Part shown: positions 6,658 to 62,230 of the stretch, in pieces
How positions within the stretch are numbered: position 1 is the stretch's first letter
Layout: each line of letters starts with the position of its first letter
Assembly: GCA_965242515.1 (NCBI GenBank)
Contig: OZ251448.1
Span: 326,512 to 390,511 of the forward strand
DNA from: Bdellovibrionales bacterium
Lineage (GTDB): Bacteria > Bdellovibrionota > Bdellovibrionia > Bdellovibrionales > UBA1609
Length of the DNA: 64,000 nt
Direction: 5' to 3'
Position numbers and translations under genes: made by a program
The notes under the pieces: model-generated
Told to the model about the DNA's origin: nothing
Databases searched by the model: none
The model's input: only the letters and a program-made list of their open reading frames with translations

Positions 6658-7104
6658 TTAATTTTTATTATTTTTTCTTAAAATATCTATTAGTAGCTTA
6701 TATATTTCTTTGTGACCGTTATGCACCTCTTTTTTTAGATCACTTATTTCTTTGGTAGTATCTGTAATATGGTTACTTAGTTTTTCATCTATCTTTTTTA
6801 TACTGCTTGCCATACCCTGAAACTTGTTTTCCATACCCTGAAACTTGTTTTCCATACCCTGAAACTTGTTTTCCATACCCTGAAACTTGTTTTCCATACC
6901 CTGAAACTTGTTTTCCATACCCTGAAACTTGTTTTCCATACCATGGGACTTGTTTTCCATACCATGGGACTTGTTTTCCACACCCTGAATTTTCTCGTTT
7001 ATAGCCTTAATATCCCATGATACCCTTAAAAGCAATACGATTACAACTACTATACCTATCGGCACGGATTGCTGAAATAAACTTAATAAACCTACTGTCG
7101 TCAT
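6658..7104 (-). CDS. membrane-anchored coiled-coil protein with heptapeptide tandem repeats
   Basis: N-terminal TM segment (PIGIVVVIVLLL), then 9 repeats of G(M/V)ENK(F/S)(Q/H), then a coiled-coil tail. Confidence 0.6.
   Translation of the reverse strand: MTTVGLLSLFQQSVPIGIVVVIVLLLRVSWDIKAINEKIQGVENKSHGMENKSHGMENKFQGMENKFQGMENKFQGMENKFQGMENKFQGMENKFQGMASSIKKIDEKLSNHITDTTKEISDLKKEVHNGHKEIYKLLIDILRKNNKN
6810..6998. repeat. 9 x 21-bp tandem repeat inside the CDS
   Basis: ccataccctgaaacttgtttt x6, ccataccatgggacttgtttt x2, and one degenerate unit. All three frames are open on both strands, which explains ORFs 6798..6983 and 6807..7004. Confidence 0.95.
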
Positions 7105-7230: not shown

Positions 7231-7288
7231 CACATGAAGGTAGAGCATCATGCTAGTGGTGCATCACAAACCCTCACCTTTTTGGGTG
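7231..7288 (-). repeat. family D repeat (reverse orientation) overlapping the 3' end of the HEAT-repeat CDS
   Basis: atgaaggtagagcatcatgctagtggtgcatcacaaaccctcacctttttgggtg resembles the D copy at 35735..35800 (ggatgaggttagggcatgcagtgcatcaaaagcaaccccctttgggggtg). Confidence 0.55.
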
Positions 7289-8013
7289 TTAATTTTCTTT
7301 AAAGCAGATAAGGCTATGGAGTGTAATCTAGGGTCAGGATCTTTAAGTAAAGAGACAAATAGTGCTTTGTCACCAGATATGGCAAAATCGGCTAGTGCGG
7401 ATGCGATATGGTGCCTAATCCAAAGGGAGGAGTTTTTATAAAAACTATCTTTAGCGTTAAGTTTTTCTATCAATCGCAGTTTATAGCGGGAGGCTTTTTG
7501 TCTGCGAATCAAGTCCACTGCAGCTGTGCGTACTACTAAGGATGGGTCATCTAGTAGTTTATCGGCGTACTGAAGAGCTAAACGAGTGTCTACTACTTCC
7601 ATAGCCAACAAAGTGGCATTGCGGACAAACCACACTGGATGACTAAATAACGAGCGTAACACAGCCCTTGCTCTATAAGGCTCCACACTATGAGCTAAAC
7701 TGATTAATGCATTCCAACGAGTGTGCATACTTTCTCTATCAGAAAGTGCAATCTTTTTAAGTAGATAGAATAATAAATTAGTATCATACTTTAAAAAAAC
7801 ATGTGTGCGATTTTCTAAAGGAAGGTTTAAAATCATTTTAATATCAGCCCTGTTTTGTTTGAATGCCCCGTAAGATGTTTTTAACGCCAATGAGTAAGAA
7901 TAATGACCACTTAGTAACATCATTATCAAAACCCCTACTAATAAAAATGCACGATATTTAACATTGTGTAGCATGGACTTTTGTATAGGATTTTTATAAA
8001 AAAATAGCAACAT
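7264..8013 (-). CDS. HEAT-repeat protein with N-terminal membrane anchor
   Basis: Repeated helical units of HEAT type (DPSLVVRTAAVDLI, DPDPRLHSIALSAL, HPVWFVRNATLLAM). Hydrophobic N-terminus. Confidence 0.6.
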   Translation of the reverse strand: MLLFFYKNPIQKSMLHNVKYRAFLLVGVLIMMLLSGHYSYSLALKTSYGAFKQNRADIKMILNLPLENRTHVFLKYDTNLLFYLLKKIALSDRESMHTRWNALISLAHSVEPYRARAVLRSLFSHPVWFVRNATLLAMEVVDTRLALQYADKLLDDPSLVVRTAAVDLIRRQKASRYKLRLIEKLNAKDSFYKNSSLWIRHHIASALADFAISGDKALFVSLLKDPDPRLHSIALSALKKINTQKGEGL

Positions 8014-9151: not shown

Positions 9152-9433
9152 CTAGGAGTGGTGGCTTTGAATATCCACAATAGTTTTGTGTTTTTTTTGT
9201 GCATTGCACGCCTTACAAGCTACAACGATATTGTTTTTCGTACTATGCCCTCCACGCACTAGTGGGATAACATGGTCCATACTAAGCATTTTTTTACAAA
9301 ATGTTTTTTGGCAATAGTAGCACACTTGGGCTTGCAGTTTAGTTTGCCACCATTTAGTTTTTTTTAGTTTTTGAGCTTTTGCCCTTTGTTTTTTGATATG
9401 TTGAGGGGGGGCTGGCACAAACAAATTTTGCAT
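9152..9433 (-). CDS. small HNH endonuclease
   Basis: CYYCQ...DHVIPLVRGGHSTKNNIVVACKACNAQK is a canonical HNH/Zn-finger pattern. 93 aa. Confidence 0.8.
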   Translation of the reverse strand: MQNLFVPAPPQHIKKQRAKAQKLKKTKWWQTKLQAQVCYYCQKTFCKKMLSMDHVIPLVRGGHSTKNNIVVACKACNAQKKHKTIVDIQSHHS

Positions 9434-11724: not shown

Positions 11725-12777
11725 ATGAAAGTTTTAATACCTTTACCTACAAGAGTTCAATTAGAAGCTCATAGTATTGTAAAAGAGCTAATATTAGCTC
11801 ATCGCTACTTAGCAGAGCTTAAAGGGATTATTCCTATTTTACCCAATGAAGATATTTTACTTTCTAATTTAGTTTTAAAAGAAGCACAAGATAGCTCCGC
11901 TATTGAAAATATTGTAACCACTCAAGATAGTTTATATAAATATCAACTGAATATGGACTCTAAACCTACAGCTGATAAAGAAGTGTATTGTTATAAAAAA
12001 GCTTTAAAATTAGCTTATGGACAAATTAAAAAACAAGGGGGTTTATCTCGCAATACTATTTTACACATTCAAAGCATTATAGAACCAAAGCGTTCGGGTT
12101 TTCGTAAAGTCCCTGGGACGGTTATTAAAAACACTGCTACCAATCAAGTTATTTATACTCCTCCATCACCTGAAAAAATACCATCTCTTATGGATCAATT
12201 AGAAAAATTTATTCATAATACAAATTCTATAGACCCTATTATAAAAATGGCTATCATTCATCATTATTTTGAGAGCATTCATCCTTTTTATGATGGCAAT
12301 GGTAGAACAGGTCGTATTATCAATATTCTTTATTTAATCCAAAACAATCTTTTAGACAGCCCTGTATTATATCTTAGTAAATATATTTTAAAATATCGAT
12401 CTAATTATTATAAGCTTTTACAAGAAGTAAGAAAAAAAGAATATTGGACTAATTGGATTATATATATATTACGATCAGTTTCTCATACAGCAAAAGACAC
12501 TATACAATTAATTAAACAAATTAATTCTTTATTTAAAGATTATAAATATAGTATTCGTAAAAATCATAAATTTTATTCTCATGATTTAATTAATAATATA
12601 TTTACTTATCCTTATACAAAAGTTAAGCTTTTAGAGAAAGAAATAAAAGTATCACGAGCAACAGCTACTCGTTATTTAGATTTATTGGCACAAGATGGTG
12701 TTTTAAAAAAACAAAATATAGGACGAAAAAGCTATTATGTTAATACTAAGTTACTTAATTTATTACAAAAATGTTAA
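11725..12777 (+). CDS. fic: Fic family protein (AMPylase-type) with N-terminal inhibitory motif and C-terminal wHTH
   Basis: Fic motif HPFYDGNGRTGR. N-terminal SSAIEN matches the (S/T)xxxE(G/N) auto-inhibition motif. The C-terminal region SRATATRYLDLLAQDGVLKK is wHTH-like. Confidence 0.85.
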   Translation: MKVLIPLPTRVQLEAHSIVKELILAHRYLAELKGIIPILPNEDILLSNLVLKEAQDSSAIENIVTTQDSLYKYQLNMDSKPTADKEVYCYKKALKLAYGQIKKQGGLSRNTILHIQSIIEPKRSGFRKVPGTVIKNTATNQVIYTPPSPEKIPSLMDQLEKFIHNTNSIDPIIKMAIIHHYFESIHPFYDGNGRTGRIINILYLIQNNLLDSPVLYLSKYILKYRSNYYKLLQEVRKKEYWTNWIIYILRSVSHTAKDTIQLIKQINSLFKDYKYSIRKNHKFYSHDLINNIFTYPYTKVKLLEKEIKVSRATATRYLDLLAQDGVLKKQNIGRKSYYVNTKLLNLLQKC

Positions 12778-13331: not shown

Positions 13332-14132
13332 TTACGGCAATAAACCACATGCCCTTAACTCTTCGTTAGATAATGTACTAGCATATTGCTTTGCTTGCTC
13401 TAAATCCTTCTTCGCATCACTTAACTCCAATAGGTCAGGACGCCTCTTTGCCGTTAATAAAATAGATACAAAATACTGAAACCGCTTAATGTCCCCATCA
13501 TGACCTGAACGCAAAAGCTCCGGCACAACATGCCCTTCAATGTGCCAAGGTCTTGTCCACTGCGGACACTCTAATAAATTCTGATTTTCAAAACTTTCAT
13601 AAGTGCTAGATAACTCATTACCCAAAACCCCCTTCACAAAACGACAAAGCGAATCTAATATCACTAAAACCGCCCCCTCACCACCTGTTAAAATGTAATT
13701 ACCAATGGATACCTCCTCATCCACTAACTCGTTTATAACCCTCTGATCAATGCCCCCATAACGACCACATATCAATGTATACTCCTTACCCTCCCTCGCC
13801 CACTGGCGAGCTAAACTGTGATCCCATAACCTCCCCTGCGGACTTAAATAACATACCAAACCTTTAGAAGGTAGTGCACTAATAGCCCTCTTCAAAGGCT
13901 CATACCTAAGTAACATCCCATCCCCACCACTAAAAGGTCTGTCATCTACCCTCCGATACTTGTCATCCGTAAAATCCCTAGGATTAGTAAAATCTACCTC
14001 CAATAACCCCGAACGAATAGCCCTCCCCACTACACCCACCCCCAACGGCGAGCGAAAATAATCCGGAAATAAACTCACAACATGTACTTTTAATTCGGTT
14101 TTTAAATTCGGTATAGTTACTTTTTTTATCAC
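13332..14132 (-). CDS. trmD: tRNA (guanine37-N1)-methyltransferase
   Basis: VVSLFPDYF, CGRYGGIDQRV and SIGNYILTGGE are TrmD blocks. The track start is a GTG lying inside the family E repeat, so the true start is uncertain. Confidence 0.9.
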   Translation of the reverse strand: MIKKVTIPNLKTELKVHVVSLFPDYFRSPLGVGVVGRAIRSGLLEVDFTNPRDFTDDKYRRVDDRPFSGGDGMLLRYEPLKRAISALPSKGLVCYLSPQGRLWDHSLARQWAREGKEYTLICGRYGGIDQRVINELVDEEVSIGNYILTGGEGAVLVILDSLCRFVKGVLGNELSSTYESFENQNLLECPQWTRPWHIEGHVVPELLRSGHDGDIKRFQYFVSILLTAKRRPDLLELSDAKKDLEQAKQYASTLSNEELRACGLLP

Positions 14133-14296
14133 TTAGTTACTTCCTCCCAATACAGTTACTCAGTATCAACCCTTATGCTCGATACTTTTTTGCTTTATTT
14201 TGTAAATTCAATATAGTTACTTTTTCTATCACTTAGTTGCTTCCCCCCAATACAGTTACTCAGTATCAACCCTTACGCTCGATACTTTTTTGCTTC
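14088..14296 (-). promoter_or_regulatory. family E leader-like repeat, two tandem ~100-bp units immediately 5' of trmD
   Basis: Units 14104..14196 and 14204..14296. Each reads aaattc(gg/aa)tatagttacttttt(t/c)tatcacttagtt(a/g)cttcc(t/c)cccaatacagttactcagtatcaaccctta(t/c)gctcgatacttttttgc. Confidence 0.8.
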
Positions 14297-16028: not shown

Positions 16029-19000
16029 TTATAAACTTAAACTTTTGCTGGATTCGTAAAGGGCTGACACAACAGCCACTGCTGCATCCCTTTGCGTAAT
16101 GCACGGCACACCCTGATCCAAACAACTCCGCCTAATGCTAAAACTAATCTCAATAGACCTTCTGCCCGATGTGGTGTTAATCACAAATGCCACCTTGCCA
16201 GAGCGAATGCGATCCACACAATGCGGACGCCCCTCATGCACCTTCTTAACCCTCAAACAAGCAATACCTGCATCCGTCAAACACCTAAAAGTACCACCCG
16301 TTGCCGATAAACTATAACCCATATCCACTAACTGACGAGCCACAGGTAATAATAATTTTTTGTCCTTATCCCGCAAAGATAAAAACACCTCGCCACTTTT
16401 AGGCACACTCAAACCCATGCCCGCTAACGCCTTTAATAATGCCACAGGATAGCTCTTGCTTCTACCCATAACCTCACCAATAGACTTCATCTCCGGACCT
16501 AAAATAGAATCCACATCCTCAAACTTCTTAAACGGAAATACCACCCCCTTAACACATACCTGCTCGCAAGCTTGCCAATTATACTGACTAGGAGTTATAT
16601 CTTTTGCCTTAAACTTTAACATAGCTTTGACCGCTAAATCTGCTAAGGGAATGCCTGTCGCCTTAGAAACATAAGGCATACTACGAGAACTCCGCGGATT
16701 AGCCTCCAATACATAAATGCAGTCATCCTTAATAGCTAACTGTAAATTTAAAAACCCTAAAATGTTTAAATTACGAGCAAGTAAAGCCGAACACTTTTCA
16801 ATCTTTTCCCATATCACTTGCTTTAACCTCTGCGGAGGTAACACCCCCATACTATCCCCACTATGTACACCTGTACCCTCAATATGCTCCACAATACCCC
16901 CTATTACTACCCAGTCAACACCACACACTAAATCCACATCCACCTCTAACCCTTCTAAAAATTGATCCATTAAACACGGATTTTCTTGAGATATAAAATG
17001 CTGATAGCGAGAAAAATAACTCCTTAACTCCGATTCATTTTCTATCAACTCCATGCGTCTCCCACCTAAAACATAACTCGGGCGACAAAGTAAAGGGTAG
17101 CCTACATACTTGCTGACTGTAATGGCAGACGATATATCAGTCGCCACCCCCGCCTTAGGTACCCTTAAACCTAAATCAGTACATAAAGATACAAACTGCC
17201 CTCTATCCTCTGCCCTGTCAATATCACGAACCTTCGTGCCGATTAACTTAAAACCCTCCTTCACCAAAGGTTTTGCTAAACCAATAGGGGTTTGCCCCCC
17301 TACTTGAGCCACAAAACCAATGGGTGATATAAACCTTAATACCTCTATCACATGCTCTTTGGTTAAAGGCTCAAAAAATAACACATCCGCTGTGTCATAA
17401 TCGGTAGAAACTGTCTCCGGATTGGAATTCACCATAACCGCCCTGTAACCTGCACGCTTTATAGAACGCACACTGCGAACACAAGAATAATCAAACTCAA
17501 TGCCCTGCCCTATCCTGTTCGGACCACTACCTAAAATCAATATAAAATTACCACTCTTAACCTGACCCTCCTGACTACCACTCGTAGTGTTTATATCTGT
17601 TGTAGTATTCCCTAGAGCTTCATCTGTAGATTTATCTGCAGATTTACCGATAGCTCCATCGATAATTCCACTATGCCAATAAGTGGAATAATAATAAGGC
17701 GTTGAAGAGGCAAACTCGCCGGCACAAGTGTCCACCTGATAAAAAGCAGGTACAATACTATAGCTATGCCTGAAACTTCGTATTTGCTCTTCAGACTTAT
17801 TACACCAGTGAGCTAACATAAAATCCGAAACCCCAAAACGCTTAGCCTGCCTTATAGATTCTTTAACACCCTCTTTTGTTTCACCTGTTATATCATCTTG
17901 TATAGATTCTTTTATATCTTTTTTTTGTATGTTTTGTGTTATATCACAAACTTTTTTGCTTTTTTGTGTATCTTTAAAGGGTAATTTTCCAGCCTGTGCT
18001 TTAATCTGTTTTTCTAACACAATAAGTTTATAAAATTGCTCTAAAAACCAAGGGTGGATTTGTGTCCACTCCTGCACTTGCTGAACCGAATGCCCCCTTC
18101 TAAAAGCCTCTAAAATACTATACAACCTGCGACTATTAGGGTAAGTTAAATTCTTTAAAGCAAAATCATCAACCCCTACCAATAAGTCATCGTGCTTTTC
18201 TAACGATACAACAGCCTTCATACAAGCCTCTAAAAACACTCTCCCTATACCCATAACCTCACCCACACTTTTCATCTGTGTGTTTAATACATCCTTAGAA
18301 CCTTCAAATTTCTCAAAGTCAAAACGAGGGATTTTAAACACCACATAATCCAAAGCAGGCTCGTAACAAGAAGGAGTAGCCCCACCTGTTATATCATTTC
18401 GAATCTCGTCCATAGTCAAACCCACAGCTACCAATGCTGCCACCTTCGCAATCGGAAACCCTGTTGCCTTACTGGCTAAAGCTGAAGAACGACTGACACG
18501 CGGATTCATCTCTATCACTAACCGCTTTCGTGTTTTGGGATGTACGGCAAACTGAATGTTGGCACCCCCTGTTTCTACCCCCACAGCTGAAATAATACGC
18601 CCTGCCTCATCACGCATAGCCTGATACTCCACATCCGATAATGTCTGCTGTGGAGAAACAGAACAACTATCCCCCGTATGCACACCACAAGGGTCCATAT
18701 TCTCCACCGAACATACCACTACAAAAGTCCCTTTACTATCACGCATAACCTCTAACTCAAACTCACACCAACCTAATAAACTCCTCTCCACTAATACCTC
18801 ACTTGTAGGCGACTCCCTTAACGCCTGTACTAACTTCCTCTCATACTCCTCAATAGAATGTGCTACCCCACTGCCCCCACCACCTAAAGTGTAATTAGGA
18901 CGAAGTACTAAGGGAAATGTCATACCACTTGCCACCTCCATACCCTGCTTAAAGCTCCTCACTAACTCACTTTCCGGATAGCCCGCCCCTATACTCTCTA

Positions 19001-19915: not shown

Positions 19916-20983
19916 TTATCTTGAGTGATGCTTTTTTTGTAGCTTTTTAATGTCTTCTTCTGAAAGCCCCATCACCTTCGCAATAAACGGAATATCTGCA
20001 TTTTCTTGAAACATATTCGCAATCACTTGTCGTCTTTCTTCTTCCCTGCCTTTTAGCTCGCCTTGTAAAATACCCTGTTGCATACCCTGTTGCATACCCT
20101 GTTGCAGGTACTTTTGTTTGCTTTGCAACATACCCTTCTTTATACCTTTTGCCATAGCCTCATCTAATGAGTATTGTAATGGTGCCATAACTCTTTCCTC
20201 CTTATCTGTTATTGTTTTAGCCTCTATTTCTCGAACGACCGTCCAACTAAAGTGTGGATCATATCTGCTTATATAATCTGCAACCTTACCTATTAACTTC
20301 CTTCTCTTACCTATACTTATAACCTGGCTTAATATAAATAAATCTCTTATCGTGTTATACTCTAAATTCCATATATTTTGTAGTATAAACAGTACCGGGC
20401 GAGAAAGCAAGCTTTCTGTCTTGGCATCCCTTACATTAAGCTTACTTATGTTGAGTAACCTGTAGCTAAAATTAAGTACATTATTACCAAAGTGCTGTTT
20501 TAAACTACTTTGAAAGCCTTGTAAGCTATCTTGAAAGGCTAAAGGCTCTTTCCAGTGCTTTTGCCTGCCATGGTAGATAACAATAGGGATAATAGGTAGT
20601 TTCGTTTGCTTGTAAATAGATACTTGATACTCCAGTAACTGTTGATGAATATTCGGTGCAGGTGAGCTTTTATGCTCAACCAGAAAAAGCATGCCTACTG
20701 TTTGGTTTTGAGCTTCTTTTAACCTTGCAGAAAGAAGTAAGTCTGTGCGTTTTTCTTTAGAATCTTGGTCTATAAAAGTAGTAACTTCTGATTTAAGAGT
20801 GTTCCAATCAAAAAGAGCCATTTCTTGTGGAGTAAATAATAAATGGAAAAGATCTAAGCAGTGCTTAGTTTGAGTGTAGATTTCTTTAAAGAAAATATCA
20901 TGCAAAAAAGCTTTGCTTTTCTTGCCCTGCTTTGGAGATGGTTTTTTAGCTGTGTCTTTACTTACAGCTTGTTTATTCCTCAT
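19916..20983 (-). CDS. Rpn/YhgA-like PD-(D/E)XK recombination-promoting nuclease (putative transposase)
   Basis: N-terminal HDIFFKEIY...CLDLF, and the nuclease core DLLLSA...MLFLVEHKS. The C-terminal tail has QQGMQQGMQQGILQG repeats and a terminal ...IPFIAKVMGLSEEDIKKL helix, typical of this family. Confidence 0.75.
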   Translation of the reverse strand: MRNKQAVSKDTAKKPSPKQGKKSKAFLHDIFFKEIYTQTKHCLDLFHLLFTPQEMALFDWNTLKSEVTTFIDQDSKEKRTDLLLSARLKEAQNQTVGMLFLVEHKSSPAPNIHQQLLEYQVSIYKQTKLPIIPIVIYHGRQKHWKEPLAFQDSLQGFQSSLKQHFGNNVLNFSYRLLNISKLNVRDAKTESLLSRPVLFILQNIWNLEYNTIRDLFILSQVISIGKRRKLIGKVADYISRYDPHFSWTVVREIEAKTITDKEERVMAPLQYSLDEAMAKGIKKGMLQSKQKYLQQGMQQGMQQGILQGELKGREEERRQVIANMFQENADIPFIAKVMGLSEEDIKKLQKKHHSR

Positions 20984-21202
20984 AACTTATTCCTCCCCTT
21001 TGTGTTTCATAATGTTACCCATAGTACATCTTAAAAAGATGCACCTGCATAAACTACATGCAAAATCGATTCCCACTTTAAATTAAAGAGTAGCAAAGAG
21101 GATATTTTGCAGGTCCAAGCACGCATAATGTGTTTTATTTGATGCAATCCTTACAATACCCCCCTACCTTCACCTAATCCATAGACTAATAAATGTACGC
21201 TT

Positions 21203-22614: not shown

Positions 22615-22690
22615 ATTCAACCCCCAAAAGGGGACGCTTTTGATGCTACTGCTTGCACGCCCTACCCTTCATCCAATCCACACACACCAT
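22615..22690 (+). repeat. family D repeat
   Basis: caacccccaaaaggggacgcttttgatgctactgcttgcacgccctacccttcatccaatccacac, followed by a truncated family A end (22696..22713). Confidence 0.7.
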
Positions 22691-23970: not shown

Positions 23971-24693
23971 ATGAAAATGTTATTTACTGCAATCTCACTT
24001 TGTTTGTTATTTAACTTTACAAGTCTTGCTCAAGCCGATACTTGCTCTAGTAGCTTTTCAAATAAATATAGAACATCCTTACTTATAGCGATTAAAAACG
24101 GACAACTAGAGAAAGTAAAATCATTATTAGAAAAAGGAGCGGATCCCAATGCTAAAGACGATGATGGAGTAACAGCTTTAATGTACATATCTACAAAAAA
24201 TGATACAGAGACAGTAAAATTATTGTTAGAAAAGGGGGCGGATCCCAATGCTAAAAACAATGATGGAAAAACAGCTTTAATGTACGCATCTGGCAATGGT
24301 CATACAAAGACAGTAAAATCATTATTAGAAAAGGGAGCTGATGTCAATGCTAAAAACAATGATGGAAAAACAGCTTTAATGTACGCATCTAATAATGGTC
24401 AGTCGGATATAGTAAAATTATTATTAGAAACTGAAGCAGATCCCAATGCTAAAGACAATGATGGACAAACAGCTTTAATGTACGCATCTTATGATGGTAG
24501 TTCAAGGATAGTAAAATTATTATTAGAAACTGAAGCAGATCCCAATGCTAAAGATAATAATGGAAAAACAGCTTTAATGATAGCATCTTATAAGAATGAT
24601 ACTGCATGGATAATAAAATTATCAAGCCGATTTAGAAAAGGGGGCGGATCCGATGATGGAATGCTAAAAACAATGATGGAAAAACAGCTTTAA
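23971..24693 (+). CDS. secreted ankyrin-repeat protein, N-terminal ORF of a frame-disrupted gene
   Basis: Signal peptide MKMLFTAISLCLLFNFTSLAQA, then 33-aa ANK units (G.TALM.AS..G....VK.LLE.GADPNAKD.). The frame is lost at about 24618..24660. Confidence 0.8.
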   Translation: MKMLFTAISLCLLFNFTSLAQADTCSSSFSNKYRTSLLIAIKNGQLEKVKSLLEKGADPNAKDDDGVTALMYISTKNDTETVKLLLEKGADPNAKNNDGKTALMYASGNGHTKTVKSLLEKGADVNAKNNDGKTALMYASNNGQSDIVKLLLETEADPNAKDNDGQTALMYASYDGSSRIVKLLLETEADPNAKDNNGKTALMIASYKNDTAWIIKLSSRFRKGGGSDDGMLKTMMEKQL

Positions 24694-25262
24694 TGTACGC
24701 ATCTAATAATGGTCAGTCGGATATAGTAAAATTATTATTAGAAACTGAAGCAGATCCCAATGCTAAAGACAATGATGGACAAACAGCTTTAATGTACGCA
24801 TCTAATAATGGTCAGTCGGATATAGTAAAATTATTATTAGAAACTGAAGCAGATCCCAATGCTAAAGACGATAATGGAAAAACAGCTTTAATGCACGCAT
24901 CTTATAATGGTCATACAAAAACAGTAAAATCATTACTAGAAAATGGAGTAAATCCCAATGCTAAAGATGATAAAGGAAGAACAGCTTTAATGATAGCATC
25001 TTATAAGAATGATACTGCATGGATAGTAAAATTATTATTAGAAAAAGGAGCGGATGTCAATGCTAAAGATAATGATGGAAAAACAGCTTTAATGTACGCA
25101 TCTCATAATGGTCATACAGAGACAGTAAAATCATTATTAGAAAATGGAGCAAATCCCAATGCTAAAGATAATGGTGAAGACACAGTTTTAGTGTACGCAT
25201 CTTTAAAAAATGATATAGGGACAATAACATTATTAAAAAAATATGGAGCTAAAGATAATTAA
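24693..25262 (+). CDS. ankyrin-repeat protein, C-terminal ORF of the same disrupted gene
   Basis: Continues the same 99-bp ANK units in another frame. About 5.5 further repeats. Confidence 0.8.
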   Translation: MYASNNGQSDIVKLLLETEADPNAKDNDGQTALMYASNNGQSDIVKLLLETEADPNAKDDNGKTALMHASYNGHTKTVKSLLENGVNPNAKDDKGRTALMIASYKNDTAWIVKLLLEKGADVNAKDNDGKTALMYASHNGHTETVKSLLENGANPNAKDNGEDTVLVYASLKNDIGTITLLKKYGAKDN

Positions 25263-25546: not shown

Positions 25547-26167
25547 TTAATCTTCTACTTTATAGCCACTTTCTATACCCTGTGTTTTTAAGTAATTTGC
25601 TAATGACTCACTAACTATCGTATCTTTAAAGATTGCATCTTTAAAGTTCGTACCTGTAAATTTCACTTCTATTAAATCAGCTTTTGTTAGATTTGCTTCT
25701 GTGAGATTTGCTTCTGTGAGATCTGCTCTAAATAAAACTGCTTCTGTGAGATTTGCCCTTGTGAGATTTGCTTTATATAATTTTGCAGAGACTAAACCCG
25801 CTTTTGTTAAATCTGCCTCTGTTAGATTTGCCTCAATGAGGCTTGCTCCAATAAACAATGAACCTGTTAGATTCAACTCGCTTAAATTTCTCTTACTTAA
25901 AGGACAGCCAGATAAATCGTATCTCCCCAACAAAACCTCTTTGTTATCAATAGCTTTAAAAAACTTTCTCAAAGTTCTTATATTACATTCAACTTTATTC
26001 TTATTCTTAGTCTTATTCTTCTTATTCTTATAAGCTACTTTTCTGGTAATTTTAACTTCTGAAGGTTTATCCTCCATTTTATCCCCCATTGAGGATTGCT
26101 TGCTTAGTTTAGTAGTAGTACAAGCTACAAGGCTTAAAAATAATAACAAGTAAATAATATGTTTCAT
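25547..26167 (-). CDS. pentapeptide-repeat lipoprotein
   Basis: The ATG at 26167 gives MKHIIYLLLFLSLVACTT (lipobox). The C-terminal half is A(D/N)L(T/S)xA pentapeptide repeats (ANLTEADLTKAGLVSAKLYKANLTRANLTEA...). Confidence 0.8.
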   Translation of the reverse strand: MKHIIYLLLFLSLVACTTTKLSKQSSMGDKMEDKPSEVKITRKVAYKNKKNKTKNKNKVECNIRTLRKFFKAIDNKEVLLGRYDLSGCPLSKRNLSELNLTGSLFIGASLIEANLTEADLTKAGLVSAKLYKANLTRANLTEAVLFRADLTEANLTEANLTKADLIEVKFTGTNFKDAIFKDTIVSESLANYLKTQGIESGYKVED

Positions 26168-26232
26168 AATATCCTCCTTTTTGATAAACAATTTTAAAGT
26201 ATTCTTTTATTATTTGATTCTATTTTTTTTTA

Positions 26233-27704: not shown

Positions 27705-29489
27705 TTAAAGAGTGTTGTTTAAAACGATAGGGAGTAAGTCTTTTAAGTCTTGAGCCATGAGGGTATCTGCCACACCTTTTGTTCTTAAATGCTCGTCAGC
27801 TAATGCCCCATGGATAAAAGCCCCCATAGCCAAAGCCTCTACGGGGGATACTTTTCGTGCCATTAAAGAGGCTATGAAACCTGTAAGTACATCCCCAGTG
27901 CCAGCTTTGGCTAATGCACTGTTACCTGTGGGAATAACCCCTAACGAGTAAGGAAAATGCTCGCTCGTTTGCGTACTCGGTATGGCTATTACAGAATGAA
28001 AGCCTTTTAATAAAAGAGTGCAATTTAATTTTTGCATAGCTTGAGTGGCATAATAAGCTTTATTTTTATCTATTTCACTTCCCTTTAGTTTAAATAAGTA
28101 AGCCAGCTCCCCACTATGCGGGGTTACTACCCAGTGGGAAGGTAAAGGATAAAGTTTTTCTTTTACACAAACCCTAAAGGCTGAAGCATCTACTACCACC
28201 GGTAAATCTAATTTTTTTAATTTAAGTAACAGCTGTTTTGTGGACTCCCCTACTTCTAAACCCGGACCAATAGCCACAGCAGTTTTGTTTTTAAATAAGT
28301 CAGAGTCGTCTATATCTTGTGTCAATATATCCGGTGCTATCCTCTCACCCCTAAAATCCTGCTTTTTTACCCATGAAAAGAGATTCTGTTGCGTTATCTT
28401 TTTTGTTAATAGCATCTTAAATAGTGAGAAAACCAATTCAAAACGAGTTCGGATTTGACCACAATGCGGAAAGCCCAAAGGCTTAACGCTTTGTGGCAAA
28501 CCGCATGTCCGAGCTTTTGACTTGGTTTTCTCACTATTAAGCATTTTTTGTTTTTGCAAAGATGATGATGTGGCTAAAGTCACATAACCACAGCCCATAC
28601 GCAAAGCTGCCTCACTACATAACTGCCCTGCCCCCTCATAACCACAAGAGCCCGCAATTACCAACACATGCCCCTGCTGTGCTTTGTGACTGGCAATCTT
28701 TCGCTTTGGCATTCGCGAAGATACCCATTTTTTTGTTACCACACATGAGTTAACAACATTTTTTTGAGTTACTAAGTTAAAAGGGTAGCCAATAGATAAC
28801 ACTTTTACAAAACCCGTGTGCTTCGGACCCTCTTGCAAATAAAACCCAAGCTTTGTCAAACCATAAGTTAAAGTCATATTGGCACAAATACCAACCCCCA
28901 CACATAAGCCTGTGTCCACATTTAAACCCGATGGCACATCTAAAGAAACAACATAACTTGATAAACTATTAACATAGTTTATTAAATCAACATAGCCTCC
29001 CCTTACCTCACCCTTTAAGCCCACTCCAAATAAGGCGTCTATTATTAAAGAAGTTTCTTTAATTTCTTTTTTTATCTTATTAAAATCACTTAAATTATAA
29101 GTAGGTATATTTTGCAACAACAGCCTGTTTTTTTGCTTTTTTACTAAGTTAGATTTGATATCATCAGCTACAAATACTTGAACCTTAATACCTTGAGAAT
29201 GCAGGTGCCTTGCTACCACCAACCCATCCCCCCCGTTATGCCCCGGACCACAAAGAAGTACCACACTTTTTTTGCCTGCAATAAGGGTGCTAAAATACTG
29301 CAAAATACTATCTGCCGATTTTGCCCCTGCAAGCTCCATTAAAACTTCAGCCGATAAATTGTATTTTTCTTGTGCAATACAATCTATCGTAGCACTGGTT
29401 TGAGCATGAGCTACACCCTGTAACAACAAACCCGATTCAGAAATTAATTTATTATTTTCCACTCCCATTTTTTTATCTATTACCATCAA
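27705..29489 (-). CDS. nnr: bifunctional NAD(P)H-hydrate repair enzyme (epimerase/dehydratase) carrying an in-frame repeat insertion
   Basis: YjeF_N motif CGPGHNGGDG. C-terminal kinase-like domain GHVLVIAGSCGYEGAG...AVAIGPGL...GTGDVLTG. 594 aa, roughly 80 aa longer than usual. Confidence 0.85.
   Translation of the reverse strand: MMVIDKKMGVENNKLISESGLLLQGVAHAQTSATIDCIAQEKYNLSAEVLMELAGAKSADSILQYFSTLIAGKKSVVLLCGPGHNGGDGLVVARHLHSQGIKVQVFVADDIKSNLVKKQKNRLLLQNIPTYNLSDFNKIKKEIKETSLIIDALFGVGLKGEVRGGYVDLINYVNSLSSYVVSLDVPSGLNVDTGLCVGVGICANMTLTYGLTKLGFYLQEGPKHTGFVKVLSIGYPFNLVTQKNVVNSCVVTKKWVSSRMPKRKIASHKAQQGHVLVIAGSCGYEGAGQLCSEAALRMGCGYVTLATSSSLQKQKMLNSEKTKSKARTCGLPQSVKPLGFPHCGQIRTRFELVFSLFKMLLTKKITQQNLFSWVKKQDFRGERIAPDILTQDIDDSDLFKNKTAVAIGPGLEVGESTKQLLLKLKKLDLPVVVDASAFRVCVKEKLYPLPSHWVVTPHSGELAYLFKLKGSEIDKNKAYYATQAMQKLNCTLLLKGFHSVIAIPSTQTSEHFPYSLGVIPTGNSALAKAGTGDVLTGFIASLMARKVSPVEALAMGAFIHGALADEHLRTKGVADTLMAQDLKDLLPIVLNNTL
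28420..28538 (+). repeat. family A element inside the nnr coding sequence
   Basis: aatagtgagaaaaccaattcaaaacgagttcggatttgaccacaatgcggaaagcccaaaggcttaacgctttgtggcaaaccgcatgtccgagcttttgacttggttttctcactatt. Translated in the nnr frame it gives ...KTKSKARTCGLPQSVKPLGFPHCGQIRTRFELVFSLF... Confidence 0.9.
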
Positions 29490-29584
29490 TATAATGTCAC
29501 TATATAATAAAAATCTTCTTTATGTAAGGGAAAAAACTTAAGTTCAAAACCTGTATCAGATTTACTTGTAAAAAGAGCTTCATC

Positions 29585-29717
29585 GTAGAGGGAAAAACCT
29601 CACTCCAGAGCTTAAAACTCAACATTTTGCCACAATATATTAGTATTTAATAAACCGGGAGGGGCAATTTTTTTGTGAGACGCTACGCTTGGACTCAAAA
29701 AAAATTCCCCTCCCGGC
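29585..29717 (-). repeat. chimeric repeat: family A half-element joined to a family C hairpin
   Basis: gtagagggaaaaacctcactccagagcttaaaactcaacattttgccacaat, then linker attagtatttaataaa, then ccgggaggggcaattttttt...aaaaaaaattcccctcccgg. Confidence 0.75.
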
Positions 29718-29916
29718 TTTTATTTAATAGTGCTTATGTTTGTAAAAGACTTGAACTAGCATTTTTTAGCTTCCGATCTATAGTAATATTTGTAATATTT
29801 ACACATGTTTAAAATTAATATCAAATATTCTTTCTTTTTAAGTGATTTGATGCTAAAAATAATGCTCATTAACAATATTTTTAATTTTAACCAAATAAAA
29901 TTAGAAGGAGTAAAAA

Positions 29917-30525
29917 ATGACAGAAAAAAAACTAAGAATAAGCTTATTAATATCAATGTTAATCTTACCTGTTATTGTACAAGCCGGTCCCGGTACTAGG
30001 ATACTTGGAGGTGAAGTTTCTGGAACGGAGGATTATGCAAGCCTGATGGAGCATTATGAAAGCCTGCTTGAGAAGGAAGTGTTTGATTTAGTAAAAAAAG
30101 AGCCTTCCTTTGCTGAAAAGTCAGCTATAGCCTTAAACAACGAGGGCAAATTACAAAACTATGTAGAATTATCAAACTTATCTTTAGAGATTCGCAGAAT
30201 CTATACAACAACAGGTAACTTAGAAAAAATAGAAAAACATATCAAAGAAACTTTACCACCTATTATACAAACGGCTAGTTATTCTTCTATACAAACAGCT
30301 AGTGATTCTTCTTCGCGGGATGTATTAAAGAATATAGCTTATCATGCACTAATGGCAAAACTCTTAATTAGTACAAAACTTCGATATTTTTTAGACACTG
30401 AGCGTATTACAGAAAAACAATACAAAAAGATAGTGAATTTAGTATCTGAAACAGCTAAAACTGCTATAAGTAAAAAACGAAATAGTTGTCAAATAAGCTT
30501 TAAAGAGCCTGGTAATGCTGTGTGA
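29917..30525 (+). CDS. hypothetical secreted protein
   Basis: ggag SD upstream. N-terminal hydrophobic signal (LLISMLILPVIVQAG). No family recognised. Confidence 0.5.
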   Translation: MTEKKLRISLLISMLILPVIVQAGPGTRILGGEVSGTEDYASLMEHYESLLEKEVFDLVKKEPSFAEKSAIALNNEGKLQNYVELSNLSLEIRRIYTTTGNLEKIEKHIKETLPPIIQTASYSSIQTASDSSSRDVLKNIAYHALMAKLLISTKLRYFLDTERITEKQYKKIVNLVSETAKTAISKKRNSCQISFKEPGNAV

Positions 30526-30649: not shown

Positions 30650-30850
30650 AATACATGCTGGATTCTAAGCTTCCGCAGGAATAACCATACTCTGTCATTA
30701 CCGTGAAAACTTAGAATCTAGTGTGGGGCGAGATTCCTGCCTACGCAGGAATGACGATAAATGCAGAAATAACTTGAAGAAGGAGGAAAAAGGTGATTTT
30801 TTAAGGGTCCAAGCGAAGCGTCCCTCTAAAAAATTACCCTTGCCCTCCTT
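30650..30850. repeat. family F-like plus family C repeats between the 29917 gene and glmM
   Basis: ggattctaagcttccgcaggaataac ... gattcctgcctacgcaggaatgacgataaatgcagaaataac, then aggaggaaaaaggtgattttttaagggtccaagcgaagcgtccctctaaaaaattacccttgccctcc. Confidence 0.7.
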
Positions 30851-30899: not shown

Positions 30900-32435
30900 C
30901 TAAAGTTTTTTTTGCAAAAAACGCACAATATCATCTGCTACTTTCTTAATTAAACTATTGTCACTGCCTTCCACCATAACCCTAATCACAGGCTCCGTCC
31001 CCGAAAGCCTGACATACAACCGAGCTTTATCTTTTAACCGCTTTGTCATGCCTTCCATAAAGTTTTCATACCCAGATATTTCAGATAACTTACTCAATTT
31101 TGTTTTTTGAATCTTGACCGTACAATGCACTTGTGGCACCTCCACTAAAGTTTTTCTTAAACTAGATAAAGTTTTATTTGTATCACGCATAACAGCTAAC
31201 ACATTCAAAGCTGCTACACACCCATCCCCCGTCGTACTATGCTTTAAAAAAATAATGTGACCTGAAGATTCCCCCCCTAAACAAATATCACGCTCTTTCA
31301 TATACTCTACCACATTCCTATCCCCTACCTCCGTACGCAATAACTCAATGCCCTTTTTTCTTAACATATCCTCTAAACCCTTGTTAGACATATATGTCGC
31401 TACCACCTTGCCCTCATCTAATTCCCCCCTTTTTTGTAAATTAAAAGCACATATACCTAAAATGTGATCGCCTGTTACTAACTCGCCCCTCTCATCTACC
31501 ATCAATACACGATCCCCATCCCCATCTAAACTAATGCCCACATCCGCCTTGTGCTTTATCACCGCCTGCTTTGTCTTCTCCACACACAATGCCCCCGACT
31601 GACGATTAATATTGTAACCATCAGGCTCTTTTCCCAATACAATAAGCTCTGCCCCTAACTCTTCAAAAATCTTAGGAGCTACCTTGTAACAAGCCCCATT
31701 GGCACAATCTAAAACAATACGCATCCCCTCTAAATCTTGCTTCAGCTCAAAAGTGTTCTTCACATGCACAATATACCTGCCAGCAGAATCGTCAATCCTA
31801 CGGCTACGCCCTACCCGATGCGAAGACGCAATCAAACTATCTAACTCCTTAGAAAATACTAAACGCTCTATCTCCTCCTCCATCCGATGCGATATCTTAA
31901 AACCATCTTTGTCAAAAATCTTTATGCCATTGTCAGGATATAAATTGTGAGAAGCAGAAATTACAATACCAGCTAATGCCCTCATATTACGAGCTAAAAA
32001 ACCAATACCAGGAGTTGGCAACGGTCCCGTCAACTGCACCCATACCCCCATAGAATTTAAACCGCTCGCTAATGCTTGCTCTAACATATAACCAGAAAGC
32101 CTAGTGTCCTTCCCAATCAACACCACCCCCATAGGGGGCTTTTTTTGACCCACTCCTTGCTCACCCCACCTATCACTTGTCAATGATGCTGAAGTTGTAC
32201 TTATCTGAGGTAACTTACTATCCCCCAAAGGGGGCTTTTTTTGACCCACTCCTTGCACGCTCCACCCACCATCTGTCAATGCCCCTTTAGCTTGAACACT
32301 CTGCTTTAATAAATACCCAAGAGCCTGCCCTACCCTTAATATAATATCCACCCGCACAGGAAATTCATTAGAAATACCCCTGATCCCATCCGTCCCAAAT
32401 AGATTTGATTCGGTATAGTTACCCTTGTGTTTCAT
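30900..32435 (-). CDS. glmM: phosphoglucosamine mutase carrying an in-frame repeat insertion
   Basis: FGTDGIRG, GKDTRLSGYMLE, GIVISASHN (active-site Ser), SLDGDGDR and GGESSGH. 511 aa against the usual ~445. Confidence 0.9.
   Translation of the reverse strand: MKHKGNYTESNLFGTDGIRGISNEFPVRVDIILRVGQALGYLLKQSVQAKGALTDGGWSVQGVGQKKPPLGDSKLPQISTTSASLTSDRWGEQGVGQKKPPMGVVLIGKDTRLSGYMLEQALASGLNSMGVWVQLTGPLPTPGIGFLARNMRALAGIVISASHNLYPDNGIKIFDKDGFKISHRMEEEIERLVFSKELDSLIASSHRVGRSRRIDDSAGRYIVHVKNTFELKQDLEGMRIVLDCANGACYKVAPKIFEELGAELIVLGKEPDGYNINRQSGALCVEKTKQAVIKHKADVGISLDGDGDRVLMVDERGELVTGDHILGICAFNLQKRGELDEGKVVATYMSNKGLEDMLRKKGIELLRTEVGDRNVVEYMKERDICLGGESSGHIIFLKHSTTGDGCVAALNVLAVMRDTNKTLSSLRKTLVEVPQVHCTVKIQKTKLSKLSEISGYENFMEGMTKRLKDKARLYVRLSGTEPVIRVMVEGSDNSLIKKVADDIVRFLQKKL
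32126..32281 (+). repeat. two family D repeat copies plus spacer inside the glmM coding sequence (156 bp, 52 codons)
   Basis: Copy a is 32126..32185 and copy b is 32221..32281: cccc(c)a(t/a)agggggctttttttgacccactccttgc(t/a)c(a/g)c(c/t)ccac...tgtcaatg. Compare the intergenic D copy at 62056..62110. Confidence 0.8.
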
Positions 32436-32640
32436 TTAGTTACATCCCCCCGGTACAGTTGCATCGTATCAACCCTAACGCTCGTTACTTTTTAATTCAA
32501 TAAAGTAATTTGTGTTCATCACTTAGTTACATCCTCCGGTATAGTTACCACTTATCAACCTTAACACTTGTTACTTTTTAATTCAATAAAGTAATTTGTA
32601 TCTTCAAATTAGTCACTCTTTTAATTCAAATTATACCAAT
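32405..32640 (-). promoter_or_regulatory. family E leader-like repeat (two units) overlapping the glmM start
   Basis: ttcggtatagttacccttgtgtttcatttagttacatccccccggtacagttgcatcgtatcaaccctaacgctcgttac..., followed by a second unit. The glmM ATG (32435) and its first 9 codons lie inside the repeat. Confidence 0.8.
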
Positions 32641-32667
32641 CAATGCCATTCAATAAAATGTAACTAT

Positions 32668-32787
32668 TTAAATAGTGAGAAAACCAATTCAAAACGAGTT
32701 CGGATTTAACGCAAAGTAGTAGCCGTAGGCTAACACTTTGCGGTAAACCGCATGTCCGAGCTTTTGACTTGGTTTTCTCACTTTAAA
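32668..32787 (+). repeat. family A element
   Basis: Termini aatagtgagaaaacc / ggttttctcac. Hairpin acgcaaagt-agtagccgtaggcta-acactttgcg. Confidence 0.9.
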
Positions 32788-32815
32788 AGCTATAGTCCCA
32801 AACAGTTTTTTTACT

Positions 32816-32900
32816 TCGGTATAGTTACCCTTGTGTTTCATTTAGTTACTTTCCCCCGGTACAGTTACCACTTATCAACCTTACCACTCGTAGCTTTTTT
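32816..32900 (-). promoter_or_regulatory. family E repeat with a decoy copy of the glmM start
   Basis: 32816..32850 is identical over 35 nt to 32409..32443, including the ATG (32841..32839). On the minus strand it opens a ~50-codon ORF that runs into the family A copy. Confidence 0.8.
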
Positions 32901-33030
32901 AATTCAACAATAAACTCTTTCTATGTACACAAGTGAAAAAACATGCTCAAAACGAGTATCGCACCCAAAGGGTGTTCATTATTATCATAATACTACTATA
33001 TAATTTCTCAAAGTGATAATTACATGCTTT

Positions 33031-33142
33031 AAAGGGGAAAAACCATGCTCAAAACGAGTTCGGATTTAACGCAAAGTAGTAGCCGTAGGCTAACACTTTG
33101 CGGTAAACCGCATGTTTGAGCTTTTGAGCTCGGTTTTTCCCC
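33031..33142 (+). repeat. family A element
   Basis: Central part identical to 32668. Termini aaaggggaaaaacc / cggtttttcccc. Confidence 0.9.
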
Positions 33143-33295
33143 GAAAGAAGTTTAACTATCTCACAAAAATCTTCCCCCTCTCACTTCGTGCCTCAAAAAG
33201 CAAAAAGCTTCCCCCTTGGTTTTCTCACTTTAAAAGCTATAGTCCCAAGCTTTTGAATTTTAAGTTTTCTCACTTATACCTATTAAAATAGCTAC

Positions 33296-33360
33296 TTTTG
33301 TCTATCACTTAGTTACTTCTTTCCGGTACAGTTGCCACTTATCAACCTTAGCAATTTTCA
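33296..33360 (-). repeat. family E repeat unit abutting the ftsH stop codon
   Basis: ctatcacttagttacttctttccggtacagttgccacttatcaaccttagc. Confidence 0.7.
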
Positions 33361-35569: not shown

Positions 35570-35821
35570 GTGAGAAAACCAAGTGGGGAGCTTAAAACTC
35601 TGCAGTTTGCCACCACAATACATTAGTTCTTATTTATTTACAGGTCGGGAGGGGCAGGTCCTTAAAGACACACTTCGCTTGGACTCTTACGGACCTCCCC
35701 TCCCGCCCTTTACTTTTAATTTGCATTTATTAGTATATGGATTGGATGAGGTTAGGGCATGCAGTGCATCAAAAGCAACCCCCTTTGGGGGTGAACTCGT
35801 TTTGAGCATGGTTTTCTCACC
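35570..35821 (-). repeat. family A element whose centre is replaced by family C and family D modules (nested/chimeric)
   Basis: A left end gtgagaaaaccaagtggggagcttaaaactctgcagtttgccac...; C hairpin gtcgggaggggcagg...cctcccctcccgcc; D ggattggatgaggttagggcatgcagtgcatcaaaagcaaccccctttgggggtg; A right end aactcgttttgagcatggttttctcacc. Confidence 0.8.
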
Positions 35822-59310: not shown

Positions 59311-60060
59311 CTACCCTACATCTTTCTTCTGCTTCAAAGCTAAAGAGCCATCAGCTGATAGTTTTTTTAGCACAATACGATGATGATATTTTAACTCACA
59401 CTCTTCTAAATTATGACAGCTAAAAAGTACACTCGCATGATGCTCTGTTACCCTCTCTTCTAAAAGCTCGGCTACACGCAAATGACTTTTCTTATCTAAA
59501 CCAGAAAAAGGCTCATCTAATAATAACAATAAAGGCTCGTGAAGAAGTGCTTGAGCAATACCTAACCTTTGCACCATACCCCTAGAATAGCTTCCGATTA
59601 ATTGATCCCGCATTTTATATAAATCTAACTTCTTTAATAAACTACGAGCCTTAGACTGAAGCTCCGCTAAAGGAGACATGCCATGCAAACGACCATAAAA
59701 TAACAATAACTCCTCCCCCGTTAAATACTCGTAAAAATAAGGATTTTCCGGTAAAAAACCAACCATTTTTAAAACAACAGGCGATAAATTTTGATTAAAA
59801 AATAATACCCTCCCACTATCAAAACGCATGAAATTTAATAAACACTTGAAAGTCGTACTTTTGCCCACACCATTCTCACCACATAAGGCTACAACCCTGC
59901 CTGCCCCTATTGAAAAACTTAAACCATCTAACACCACCCTCCTACTACCACCTGAAAGCTTGCCACCCCTACAATAAGACCATAACGAACGAGCCAGAAC
60001 AAAACTCTTCGTCAACCCCTCCACACACAAAGTGTGTTTATTTTGATGCACTACTTGCAT
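59311..60060 (-). CDS. ABC transporter ATP-binding protein
   Basis: Walker A GENGVGKST, signature YSRGMVQRL and Walker B LLLLDEPFSGLD. The first ~9 codons lie in a family D repeat. Confidence 0.9.
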   Translation of the reverse strand: MQVVHQNKHTLCVEGLTKSFVLARSLWSYCRGGKLSGGSRRVVLDGLSFSIGAGRVVALCGENGVGKSTTFKCLLNFMRFDSGRVLFFNQNLSPVVLKMVGFLPENPYFYEYLTGEELLLFYGRLHGMSPLAELQSKARSLLKKLDLYKMRDQLIGSYSRGMVQRLGIAQALLHEPLLLLLDEPFSGLDKKSHLRVAELLEERVTEHHASVLFSCHNLEECELKYHHRIVLKKLSADGSLALKQKKDVG

Positions 60061-60086
60061 ACTCTACCTCCATCCAATCCATATAC
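60032..60086 (+). repeat. family D repeat overlapping the ABC ATPase start
   Basis: gtgtgtttattttgatgcactacttgcatactctacctccatccaatccatatac. Compare 62165..62225. Confidence 0.75.
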
Positions 60087-60094
60087 TACTTCTA

Positions 60095-61894: not shown

Positions 61895-61971
61895 TGGTCG
61901 GACCGACTGGATTTGAACCAGCGACCTCCACCACCCCAAGGTGGTACGCTACCAAACTGCGCCACGGTCCG
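61895..61971 (-). tRNA. tRNA-Pro (GGG)
   Basis: The reverse complement CGGACCGTGGCGCAGTTTGGTAGCGTACCACCTTGGGGTGGTGGAGGTCGCTGGTTCAAATCCAGTCGGTCCGACCA gives a cloverleaf with anticodon loop TT-GGG-GT. CCA is encoded. Confidence 0.9.
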
Positions 61972-61974
61972 CAC

Positions 61975-62230
61975 GATTTGCGGGTTGCTTTTGATGCGAC
62001 TGCTTGCCCCCAACACCTAATACCAATCCATATACTATGTAATTATTGTCCGTCAACTACAGCCCCACCCAAAGGGTGTTGCTTTTGATGCACCCCTTGC
62101 ATACTCTACCTTATATCAGTCAATGTTACTACATATTATAACTGCACCACACAGCCCGCCTGCATAGAGCGTGTTTATTTTTGATGCACCCCTTGCATAC
62201 TCTACCTTATATTAGTCAATGTTGTATGTG
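61975..62230 (+). repeat. three tandemly arranged family D repeat copies downstream of tRNA-Pro
   Basis: ttgcttttgatgcgactgcttgccccc...aatccatatac; cccaaagggtgttgcttttgatgcaccccttgcatactctaccttatatcagtcaatg; gtgtttatttttgatgcaccccttgcatactctaccttatattagtcaatg. Confidence 0.8.

Follow-up and report, generated by a model that had tools for sequence, protein, structure and literature searches.

A non-palindromic dispersed repeat inserted in frame in the glmM gene of an apparent Bdellovibrionota/Oligoflexia relative

Selfish DNA lying in frame within protein-coding genes is known from Rickettsia. According to the available portions of the published descriptions, Rickettsia palindromic elements (RPEs) are 105-146 bp long, have terminal inverted repeats and a long stem-loop, and sit in frame in 19 protein genes of Rickettsia (Ogata et al. 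2000; PMC2229807, PMC10969869). A guanylate kinase that bears such an element is still active, as the accessible text of one of these sources reports (PMC2229807). Here we describe a related case in a 64,000-nucleotide stretch of contig OZ251448.1 (the window throughout), in which glmM, the gene for phosphoglucosamine mutase, contains a 156-nt piece made of two copies of a dispersed repeat, family D, with the reading frame kept. We regard it as quite likely that this piece is a tolerated in-frame insertion, a selfish passenger that resembles the RPEs in its effect. The phenomenon itself is known from the RPEs of Rickettsia; what is new here is the unrelated lineage and the non-palindromic repeat. 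In the literature searched, no in-frame repeat insertion of the RPE kind is described for a Bdellovibrionota/Oligoflexia-related lineage.

Two family D units in the reading frame of glmM

The insert consists of two direct units of 60 nt each, g1 and g2, which are 87% identical and lie 96 nt apart from start to start (Table 1). The units agree at 34 of their first 35 nt and are 72% identical over the remainder, and the 29-nt core AAGGGGGCTTTTTTTGACCCACTCCTTGC gave two matches in the window, while 100 shuffles produced none. With six intergenic D copies as its only source, an nhmmer profile matched both glmM units, with E=2.4e-9 and 1.2e-8. An earlier note on this DNA had proposed that glmM carries two D copies in frame, spanning 156 bp. 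The uninterrupted open reading frame (ORF), the Pfam domains and the direct repeats all confirm this proposal, and the profile search makes the asserted similarity to the intergenic copies significant. The positions given there for the two copies were right within 1 nt, the second one starting at 32222 and not at 32221. The intergenic example was misplaced: put at 62056-62110, it really occupies 62066-62125, with a second unit at 62162-62221.

The insert begins in codon phase 1, and removal of exactly positions 32126-32281 joins the flanks in frame as ...QSVQAKG|VVLIGKDTR. The insert opens with CCCC (4 nt), and the same letters directly follow its end, which leaves 4 nt of play in the boundary. 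These letters are a possible target-site duplication; the intergenic dimer 62066-62221 has no such repeat. Of the six frames of these 156 nt, five are closed, and the open one is that of glmM. Both units read TGG where the corresponding frame of the intergenic copies has TAG (in GGTAGAG). The GC content is 50% in the insert versus 41% in the remaining glmM, and Gly, Ser, Thr, Pro, Gln, Lys and Asp make up 71% of the inserted peptide. Two predicted tryptic peptides, LPQISTTSASLTSDR and GALTDGGWSVQGVGQK, would be diagnostic of its translation.

The best homologues of this GlmM are 65-72% identical and come from metagenome-assembled genomes named Oligoflexia or Bdellovibrionales. Among the 120 best matches, both FGTDGIRG and IGKDTR were found in 115, where these two anchors are 34-42 residues apart; here the distance is 86. 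With the native loop itself varying over that range, the net gain amounts to 44-52 residues. The inserted segment is missing from all 115, and 29 of 29 aligned relatives are gapped across its entire length, in line with the earlier note, which had viewed it as extra relative to GlmM orthologues. Its statement that only a few residues are normal at this position also held, the solved GlmM structures having 2-4 of them; in B. subtilis GlmM (7ojr) the alignment goes from residue 39 to residue 42. The insert lies in the connection between helix 1 and strand 2 of domain 1. The assignment to the N-terminal domain is refined in this way, and what had been called near the Ser loop is 58 residues ahead of it in sequence. 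An AlphaFold2 model of GlmM (29-sequence alignment; predicted template modelling score, pTM, 0.82) places the insert between a helix at 29-54 and a strand at 104-109, with a per-residue confidence (pLDDT) <50 for residues 52-97 and a confident prediction for the rest. The insert probably sits on the face pointing away from the active site.

Fate of the enzyme and arrival of the insert

The protein that surrounds the insert retains the features of a GlmM. Its four domains, PGM_PMM_I-IV (PF02878, PF02879, PF02880 and PF00408), are all over the Pfam cut-offs, with E from 1e-12 to 1e-36. By homologue alignment, we located the Ser loop SASHN at S160-N164, the metal loop DGDGDR at D304-R309, the sugar loop (GExSGH) as GGESSGH at G387-H393, and the phosphate loop SGTEP at S478-P482; the columns of these four catalytic motifs, common to 28 homologues, are invariant or nearly so. 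Foldseek comparison of the AlphaFold2 model with the solved GlmM structures 6gyz, 3pdk and 7ojr yielded TM scores of 0.87-0.92, normalised to target length. In addition, the 64-kb window encodes mur genes, mraY and murD, and because these depend on UDP-N-acetylglucosamine (UDP-GlcNAc), glmM is probably still required.

These observations bear on whether the insertion inactivated or crippled glmM, in which case the gene would be an early pseudogene and its open frame a remnant from before decay. Small, repeat-ridden genomes that look host-associated, as this one does, accumulate degraded genes, and the residue right after SASHN is L165, where Pro is near-universal in the alignment. Nevertheless, we find a pseudogene very improbable. 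The 511-codon frame is intact despite the closure of five of the six insert frames, the catalytic motifs are invariant and the fold is confidently predicted. Moreover, TGG in both units, as opposed to the TAG of the family, would be expected if the frame were under selection, and the UDP-GlcNAc-dependent genes are present. An assembly artefact that misplaced repeat sequence into glmM, to which a repeat-rich genome might lend itself, is hardly credible: the source contig is 1.76 Mb long, the junctions are in frame, and the variants seen in the units and linker have no second occurrence in the window, so that they were not copied from another window locus.

How such a piece probably came to be tolerated can be outlined as follows. 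A 156-bp piece of D, comprising two 60-nt units and a 36-nt linker, entered the DNA encoding the helix-1/strand-2 loop of GlmM domain 1, and four properties probably account for its survival there. Its length is a multiple of three; in the given orientation and phase its sole open frame coincides with that of glmM; its terminator-like hairpin and T-run fall on the non-coding strand and should spare the glmM transcript; and the target loop is length-variable among homologues and expected at the surface. A consensus terminator scan called a terminator-like hairpin with T7 on the + strand at 32126 and 32221, and because the repeat is antisense to the gene, the D hairpin should not terminate the glmM transcript. 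The opposite orientation would put both the terminator and stop codons inside glmM. We infer from the sequence that transcription and translation of the segment yield a 52-residue loop, predicted to be disordered, in which Gly, Ser, Gln, Lys and Pro are abundant. Such a loop would be a presumably neutral passenger, tolerated on an otherwise normal and presumably active enzyme, and not a new functional domain.

Alternatively, the loop could have been co-opted as a new partner or regulatory surface, or the DNA element could tune glmM by means of an antisense terminator or an mRNA hairpin. That g1 and g2 nearly agree over their first 35 nt, against 72% identity in the rest, is possibly a sign of constraint; the antisense hairpin with its T7 is strong, and the sense strand has a weak terminator-like site as well. 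Co-variation is also seen in the stems of the family's hairpins, 96.7% of positions being paired and two of five pairs compensatory, in six sequences only. Yet all eight codons that differ between g1 and g2 differ nonsynonymously, so that apart from the open frame nothing in the inserted peptide points to purifying selection. Disorder is predicted for the peptide, relatives lack the segment, and the conservation of the 35 nt is equally explained by recent homogenisation or by DNA-level constraint on the repeat. A search with the 52-aa peptide found no candidates, a weak negative since GlmM itself was also missed. Altogether, we judge co-option quite improbable. As for RNA structure, the 156-nt insert folds with z = -0.98 and single D units with z from -2.6 to +0.6, and no inverted repeats were found in 31900-32500.

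We next consider how many events produced the tolerated insertion. The intergenic dimer 62066-62221 and the glmM dimer share their 156-nt length, their 96-nt period and a collinear alignment. Because this layout is identical, comparison of the two loci leads us to favour the insertion of one pre-formed 156-nt dimer, rather than two separate hits. The glmM units are each other's closest relatives and share CT7GACCCACTCC, unlike the TTGCTTTTGATGCACCCC of other window copies, and both units, together with the linker, are variants that occur nowhere else in the window. In-situ tandem duplication of 96 nt was considered as well and set aside, as there is no second copy of the linker or the flank.

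A further question is whether the insertion was a clean one of 156 nt. A native KK(A/P)PM stretch (AAAAAAGCNCCNATGG) could have served as microhomology during integration, or one unit could have been duplicated in place later, and part of g1 would then be native or hybrid. Many relatives have KK[A/P]PM directly ahead of VLIGKD, which the repeat-encoded junction QKKPPMG resembles; the junction codons are CAA AAA AAG CCC CCT ATG GGG here, AAA AAA CCT CCG ATG GTT in the relative L125 and GAA AAA GCT CCC ATG GTT in the relative L126. Furthermore, the antisense strand of AAAAAAGCNCCNATGG looks like the end of D with its T-run and hairpin, the hairpin loop of g1 is ATA (Met, as in the relatives) and not the AAA of the family, and the mutual closeness of g1 and g2 would suit a duplication. 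However, every D copy has its own hairpin and T-run before the core, and the CCCCC and CACCC hairpin arms recur among D copies at unrelated sites. For this reason we favour treating the g1 hairpin as repeat-derived and the QKKPPMG likeness as coincidence or survivorship. Excision of the 156 nt also yields a plausible native loop in one step, and a flanking duplicate of the 36-nt linker is not seen. A hybrid or duplicated g1 thus appears somewhat unlikely.

Several points weigh against a single, clean and tolerated insertion, which remains our preferred reading. As far as the derived states shared by g1 and g2 are concerned, an in-situ duplication or an unseen source subfamily cannot be separated from the arrival of a dimer. 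Given the likeness of QKKPPMG to KK[AP]PM, the insert may have other boundaries, or may have integrated in another way, than a clean insertion of 156 nt would imply. The terminator scan gave a weak terminator-like call on the glmM sense strand as well, at 32139-32125. Finally, the nearest relatives are only 66-72% identical, and this lack of a close relative allows neither an empty-site allele nor dating.

A broader proposal, which we hold to be unlikely, is that D represents a non-palindromic mobile repeat of an undescribed kind, which would spread as 156-nt dimers or 96-nt-period arrays and be guided by microhomology to targets that mimic its end (an A-run plus hairpin). If true, the target in glmM would have been the native KKxPM-coding stretch, and entry into coding sequence would be transposase-independent and regenerate native-like residues; in-frame repeat colonisation would then characterise the small-genome Bdellovibrionota relatives as a clade, since another genus has a different repeat in frame in Nnr, GcvP and a third protein.

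Family D and its genomic surroundings

Table 1 Coordinates of glmM, family D copies and other features (positions in the window unless the relative L121 is named)
Feature	Position	Strand	Basis
glmM ORF, phosphoglucosamine mutase, 511 aa, uninterrupted	30900..32435	-	ORF list, Pfam
Family D dimer in glmM, 156 nt, residues 52-103 = ALTDGGWSVQGVGQKKPPLGDSKLPQISTTSASLTSDRWGEQGVGQKKPPMG	32126..32281	+ (antisense to gene)	repeats, profile, excision
D unit g1: hairpin CCCCC-ATA-GGGGG, C+T7, GACCCACTCCTTGC...TTGTCAATG	32126..32185	+	repeats, profile, terminator-like call
Linker between units, 36 nt, encodes DSKLPQISTTSA	32186..32221	.	no second window copy (blastn-short)
D unit g2: hairpin CCCCC-AAA-GGGGG, C+T7, GACCCACTCCTTGC...CTGTCAATG	32222..32281	+	repeats, profile, terminator-like call
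Intergenic D dimer, units 62066-62125 and 62162-62221, 156 nt, 96-nt period	62066..62221	+	collinear alignment with glmM dimer
D unit, alternative tail ..CCAATCCATATACTA, first of three-unit array beside tRNA-Pro	61969..62037	+	profile
D unit overlapping 5' end of ABC ATPase ORF 59311-60060 (-)	60024..60088	+	profile; frame as in glmM
D unit between ftsH and its upstream gene, co-directional with both	35730..35791	-	profile, terminator scan
D unit, intergenic	22621..22685	+	profile
D unit, diverged, 136 nt upstream of YhgA-like transposase gene	21119..21188	+	profile
D unit, diverged, overlapping 3' end of HEAT-repeat gene	7236..7285	-	profile
Repeat at the glmM start, further site	32795-32910		
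Repeat at the glmM start, further site	32510-32599		
Repeat at the glmM start, further site	33288-33350		
Repeat at the glmM start, further site	14106-14290		
Eukaryote-type S-adenosylmethionine decarboxylase (PF01536)	2753-3730		
Fic protein	11725-12777		
Pentapeptide-repeat protein	25547-26191		
HEAT-repeat protein	7264-8013		
L121 repeat in Nnr	12405-12486		
L121 repeat in GcvP	2589-2649	-	
L121 repeat in third ORF	18317-18396		

Beside the glmM dimer, at least eight further copies of family D are present in the 64 kb. A profile seeded with the glmM copies and those near 62 kb retrieved further members at ~60022, 35793 (-), 22620, 61980, 7285 (-) and 21120. Read on its + strand, D comprises a 4-5-bp GC hairpin (loop usually AAA), a T-rich run, the core GATGCACCCCTTGCATACTCTACC and a tail, which is of two kinds, ..TCAGTCAATG or ..CCAATCCATATACTA; the glmM units have the former. 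D is a short dispersed element, but it has no terminal inverted repeats or long stem-loop, and by structure it is not an RPE or a miniature inverted-repeat transposable element (MITE). In addition to both glmM units, the terminator scan called the copy at 35730..35791. The linker of the intergenic dimer occurs once in the window and is non-homologous to that of glmM. This dimer is part of a D array at 61969-62221, in which three units stand head to tail with a period of 94-96 nt directly upstream of tRNA-Pro (61895-61971, -); the hairpin left arm of the first array unit includes the first 3 nt of the tRNA gene. The ABC ATPase ORF 59311-60060 begins at an ATG within the D core (ATGCAAG) and reads the hairpin in a glmM-like frame as MQVVHQNKHTLCVEGLTKSF. 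Its Pfam ABC_tran match runs from residue 44 on, and D may supply this ORF with an N-terminal extension or a start codon. The overlaps with tRNA-Pro and the ABC ATPase hinted that the hairpin left arm is copied from the target flank, an idea we rejected as the same arms are found at unrelated sites.

Other identities were considered for D and likewise discarded. A promoter scan places no sigma-70 promoter in it, and by eye TTGACA (sense orientation) has no -10 element; a sigma-54 promoter does not fit the GG-N10-GC spacing, also by eye. A tRNA-derived origin, of the kind of short interspersed nuclear elements, was considered for GGTAGAG and received no support from ARAGORN or Rfam. The 60-nt repeat, its unique 36-nt linker and the constant period brought a CRISPR-like array to mind. 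Such arrays consist of many identical 23-50-nt repeats with unique spacers of similar size; D has 2-3 units per site, each 60 nt long and 87% identical, with differing stems in neighbouring units and single units dispersed elsewhere. Rfam yielded no D family at the gathering threshold over the whole window, nor at E<=1 over 59900-62400. No D copy was found in ~21 kb around glmM of five relatives, and two specific D patterns returned nothing from Joint Genome Institute (JGI) metagenome contigs but one chance match in a 20%-GC contig. A degenerate core pattern run against a genome collection gave single chance matches in unrelated taxa, which is uninformative on the distribution of D. In the window, transposase-like or nuclease genes are limited to those for a YhgA-like Transposase_31 (19916-20983, -) and a small HNH endonuclease (9152-9433, -), and no link of either to D mobility was found.

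Repeated DNA makes up ~10% of the window. The earlier note had called glmM the second housekeeping enzyme to be hit, by a second repeat family, and this agrees with the adjacent nnr/YjeF ORF (27705-29489, -), which carries a different, palindromic repeat in frame. This P repeat of ~120 nt lies at 28417-28540 in the linker between YjeF_N and Carb_kinase, within ~65 residues that are extra relative to the orthologue of a relative, L121. The P family has at least 10 copies in the window, and the nnr copy folds at -59.5 kcal/mol (z = -9.0). L121 itself, represented by a 1.56-Mb contig with a GlmM ~65-70% identical to ours, has its own 60-80-nt repeat in three ORFs, in one shared frame (DTGKHNLQ...). 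The repeat-encoded peptides are 'DTGKHNLQSSDIDAAESRRNI' in Nnr and 'DTGKHNLQGSDMYAAESRLN' in GcvP, and the former occupies the same inter-domain linker that holds the P insert in the window nnr. The entire clade may share this in-frame colonisation by repeats.

The glmM start codon and the first ~14 codons (MKHKGNYTE...) fall within another dispersed repeat, at 32392-32503, which features a GGGGGGA Shine-Dalgarno-like run, ATG or GTG, and GTAACTATACCGAA. Because there is no alternative start between this one and the conserved FGTDGIRG, translation of glmM appears to begin in sequence derived from this repeat, which also abuts the 5' end of the trmD ORF (13332-14132). The spacer between ftsH and glmM (32436-33360) measures 925 nt, compared with 10-78 nt in five relatives, and is nearly all repeats, namely the P family, the start-codon family and, at 32961-32975, a lone CACCCAAAGGGTG hairpin. 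On the other side, the opposite strand carries, between glmM and nnr, a 202-aa ORF with no Pfam match (29917-30525, +), flanked by repeats at 29525-29728 and 30732-30839; in five relatives glmM and nnr are 17-62 nt apart or overlap.

Elsewhere in the window, two ankyrin-repeat ORFs (23971-24693 and 24693-25262) abut, with ~99-nt tandem repeats that are 77-83% identical; a single gene, broken by a frameshift or a sequencing error, could underlie both. A 63-nt tandem repeat of three units, 85-93% identical, lies at 6804-6989 inside a 148-aa ORF (6658-7104, -). Type IV pilus genes are also present. Because of the ankyrin, Fic, pentapeptide, HEAT and S-adenosylmethionine decarboxylase genes, together with the 1.76-Mb contig and 36% GC, the data suggest a host-associated lifestyle and a small genome in a Bdellovibrionota/Oligoflexia relative. 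Host association is a setting where selfish repeats are expected to accumulate.

Comparison with described repeats

Our analysis extends the occurrence of selfish DNA inside genes that code for proteins beyond the RPEs of Rickettsia to small-genome, apparently host-associated Bdellovibrionota/Oligoflexia relatives, and to a repeat without palindromic MITE structure. Within 64 kb, repeat families of two distinct structures have entered the neighbouring housekeeping genes glmM and nnr, and a third family contains the start codon of glmM. In a related genus, a further repeat is likewise found in frame within genes. For annotation, such in-frame inserts are neither frameshifts nor pseudogenes. For protein evolution, they constitute natural loop-insertion experiments in essential enzymes, and for genome evolution they bear on how repeat proliferation relates to an intracellular lifestyle.

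Among described families, the pneumococcal SPRITE (2011, cited in PMC10969869) resembles D, going by the part of its description available, as a non-autonomous dispersed repeat with a terminator-like hairpin and T-run that abuts other repeat families and clusters with them; D abuts the palindromic P family in the window. The likeness is one of description and not of sequence. SPRITE belongs to an unrelated organism and is described in that account as intergenic, and no report of an in-frame coding insertion of SPRITE was found in the accessible text of the literature searched. Intragenic ERIC and Correia/NEMIS MITEs also have an open frame fused in frame to host genes, and BOX shares with D a modular architecture of tandem sub-units (PMC2229807, PMC10969869). 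ERIC and Correia elements, however, have terminal inverted repeats and TA target duplications, whereas D has no inverted termini and shows an ambiguous 4-nt CCCC at the glmM junction. The P family of the same genome is similarly found in frame in a housekeeping gene at an adjacent operon position; unlike D (z = -0.98), it forms a true RPE/MITE-like long stem-loop (-59.5 kcal/mol, z = -9.0).

The RPEs come closest. As far as the available descriptions go, they too are short dispersed repeats of a small, intracellular-type genome that occur both between genes and in frame in conserved housekeeping enzymes, with the frame kept and the extra peptide at a tolerant site, as for D in glmM. In contrast to them, D has no inverted repeats or long stem-loop; its building blocks are direct units of 60 nt at a period of 96 nt, each with a 5-bp hairpin and T-run. 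Its host, moreover, belongs with Bdellovibrionota/Oligoflexia relatives in another phylum, and it is by their descriptions that the two elements are set apart. D in glmM is RPE-like in consequence only.

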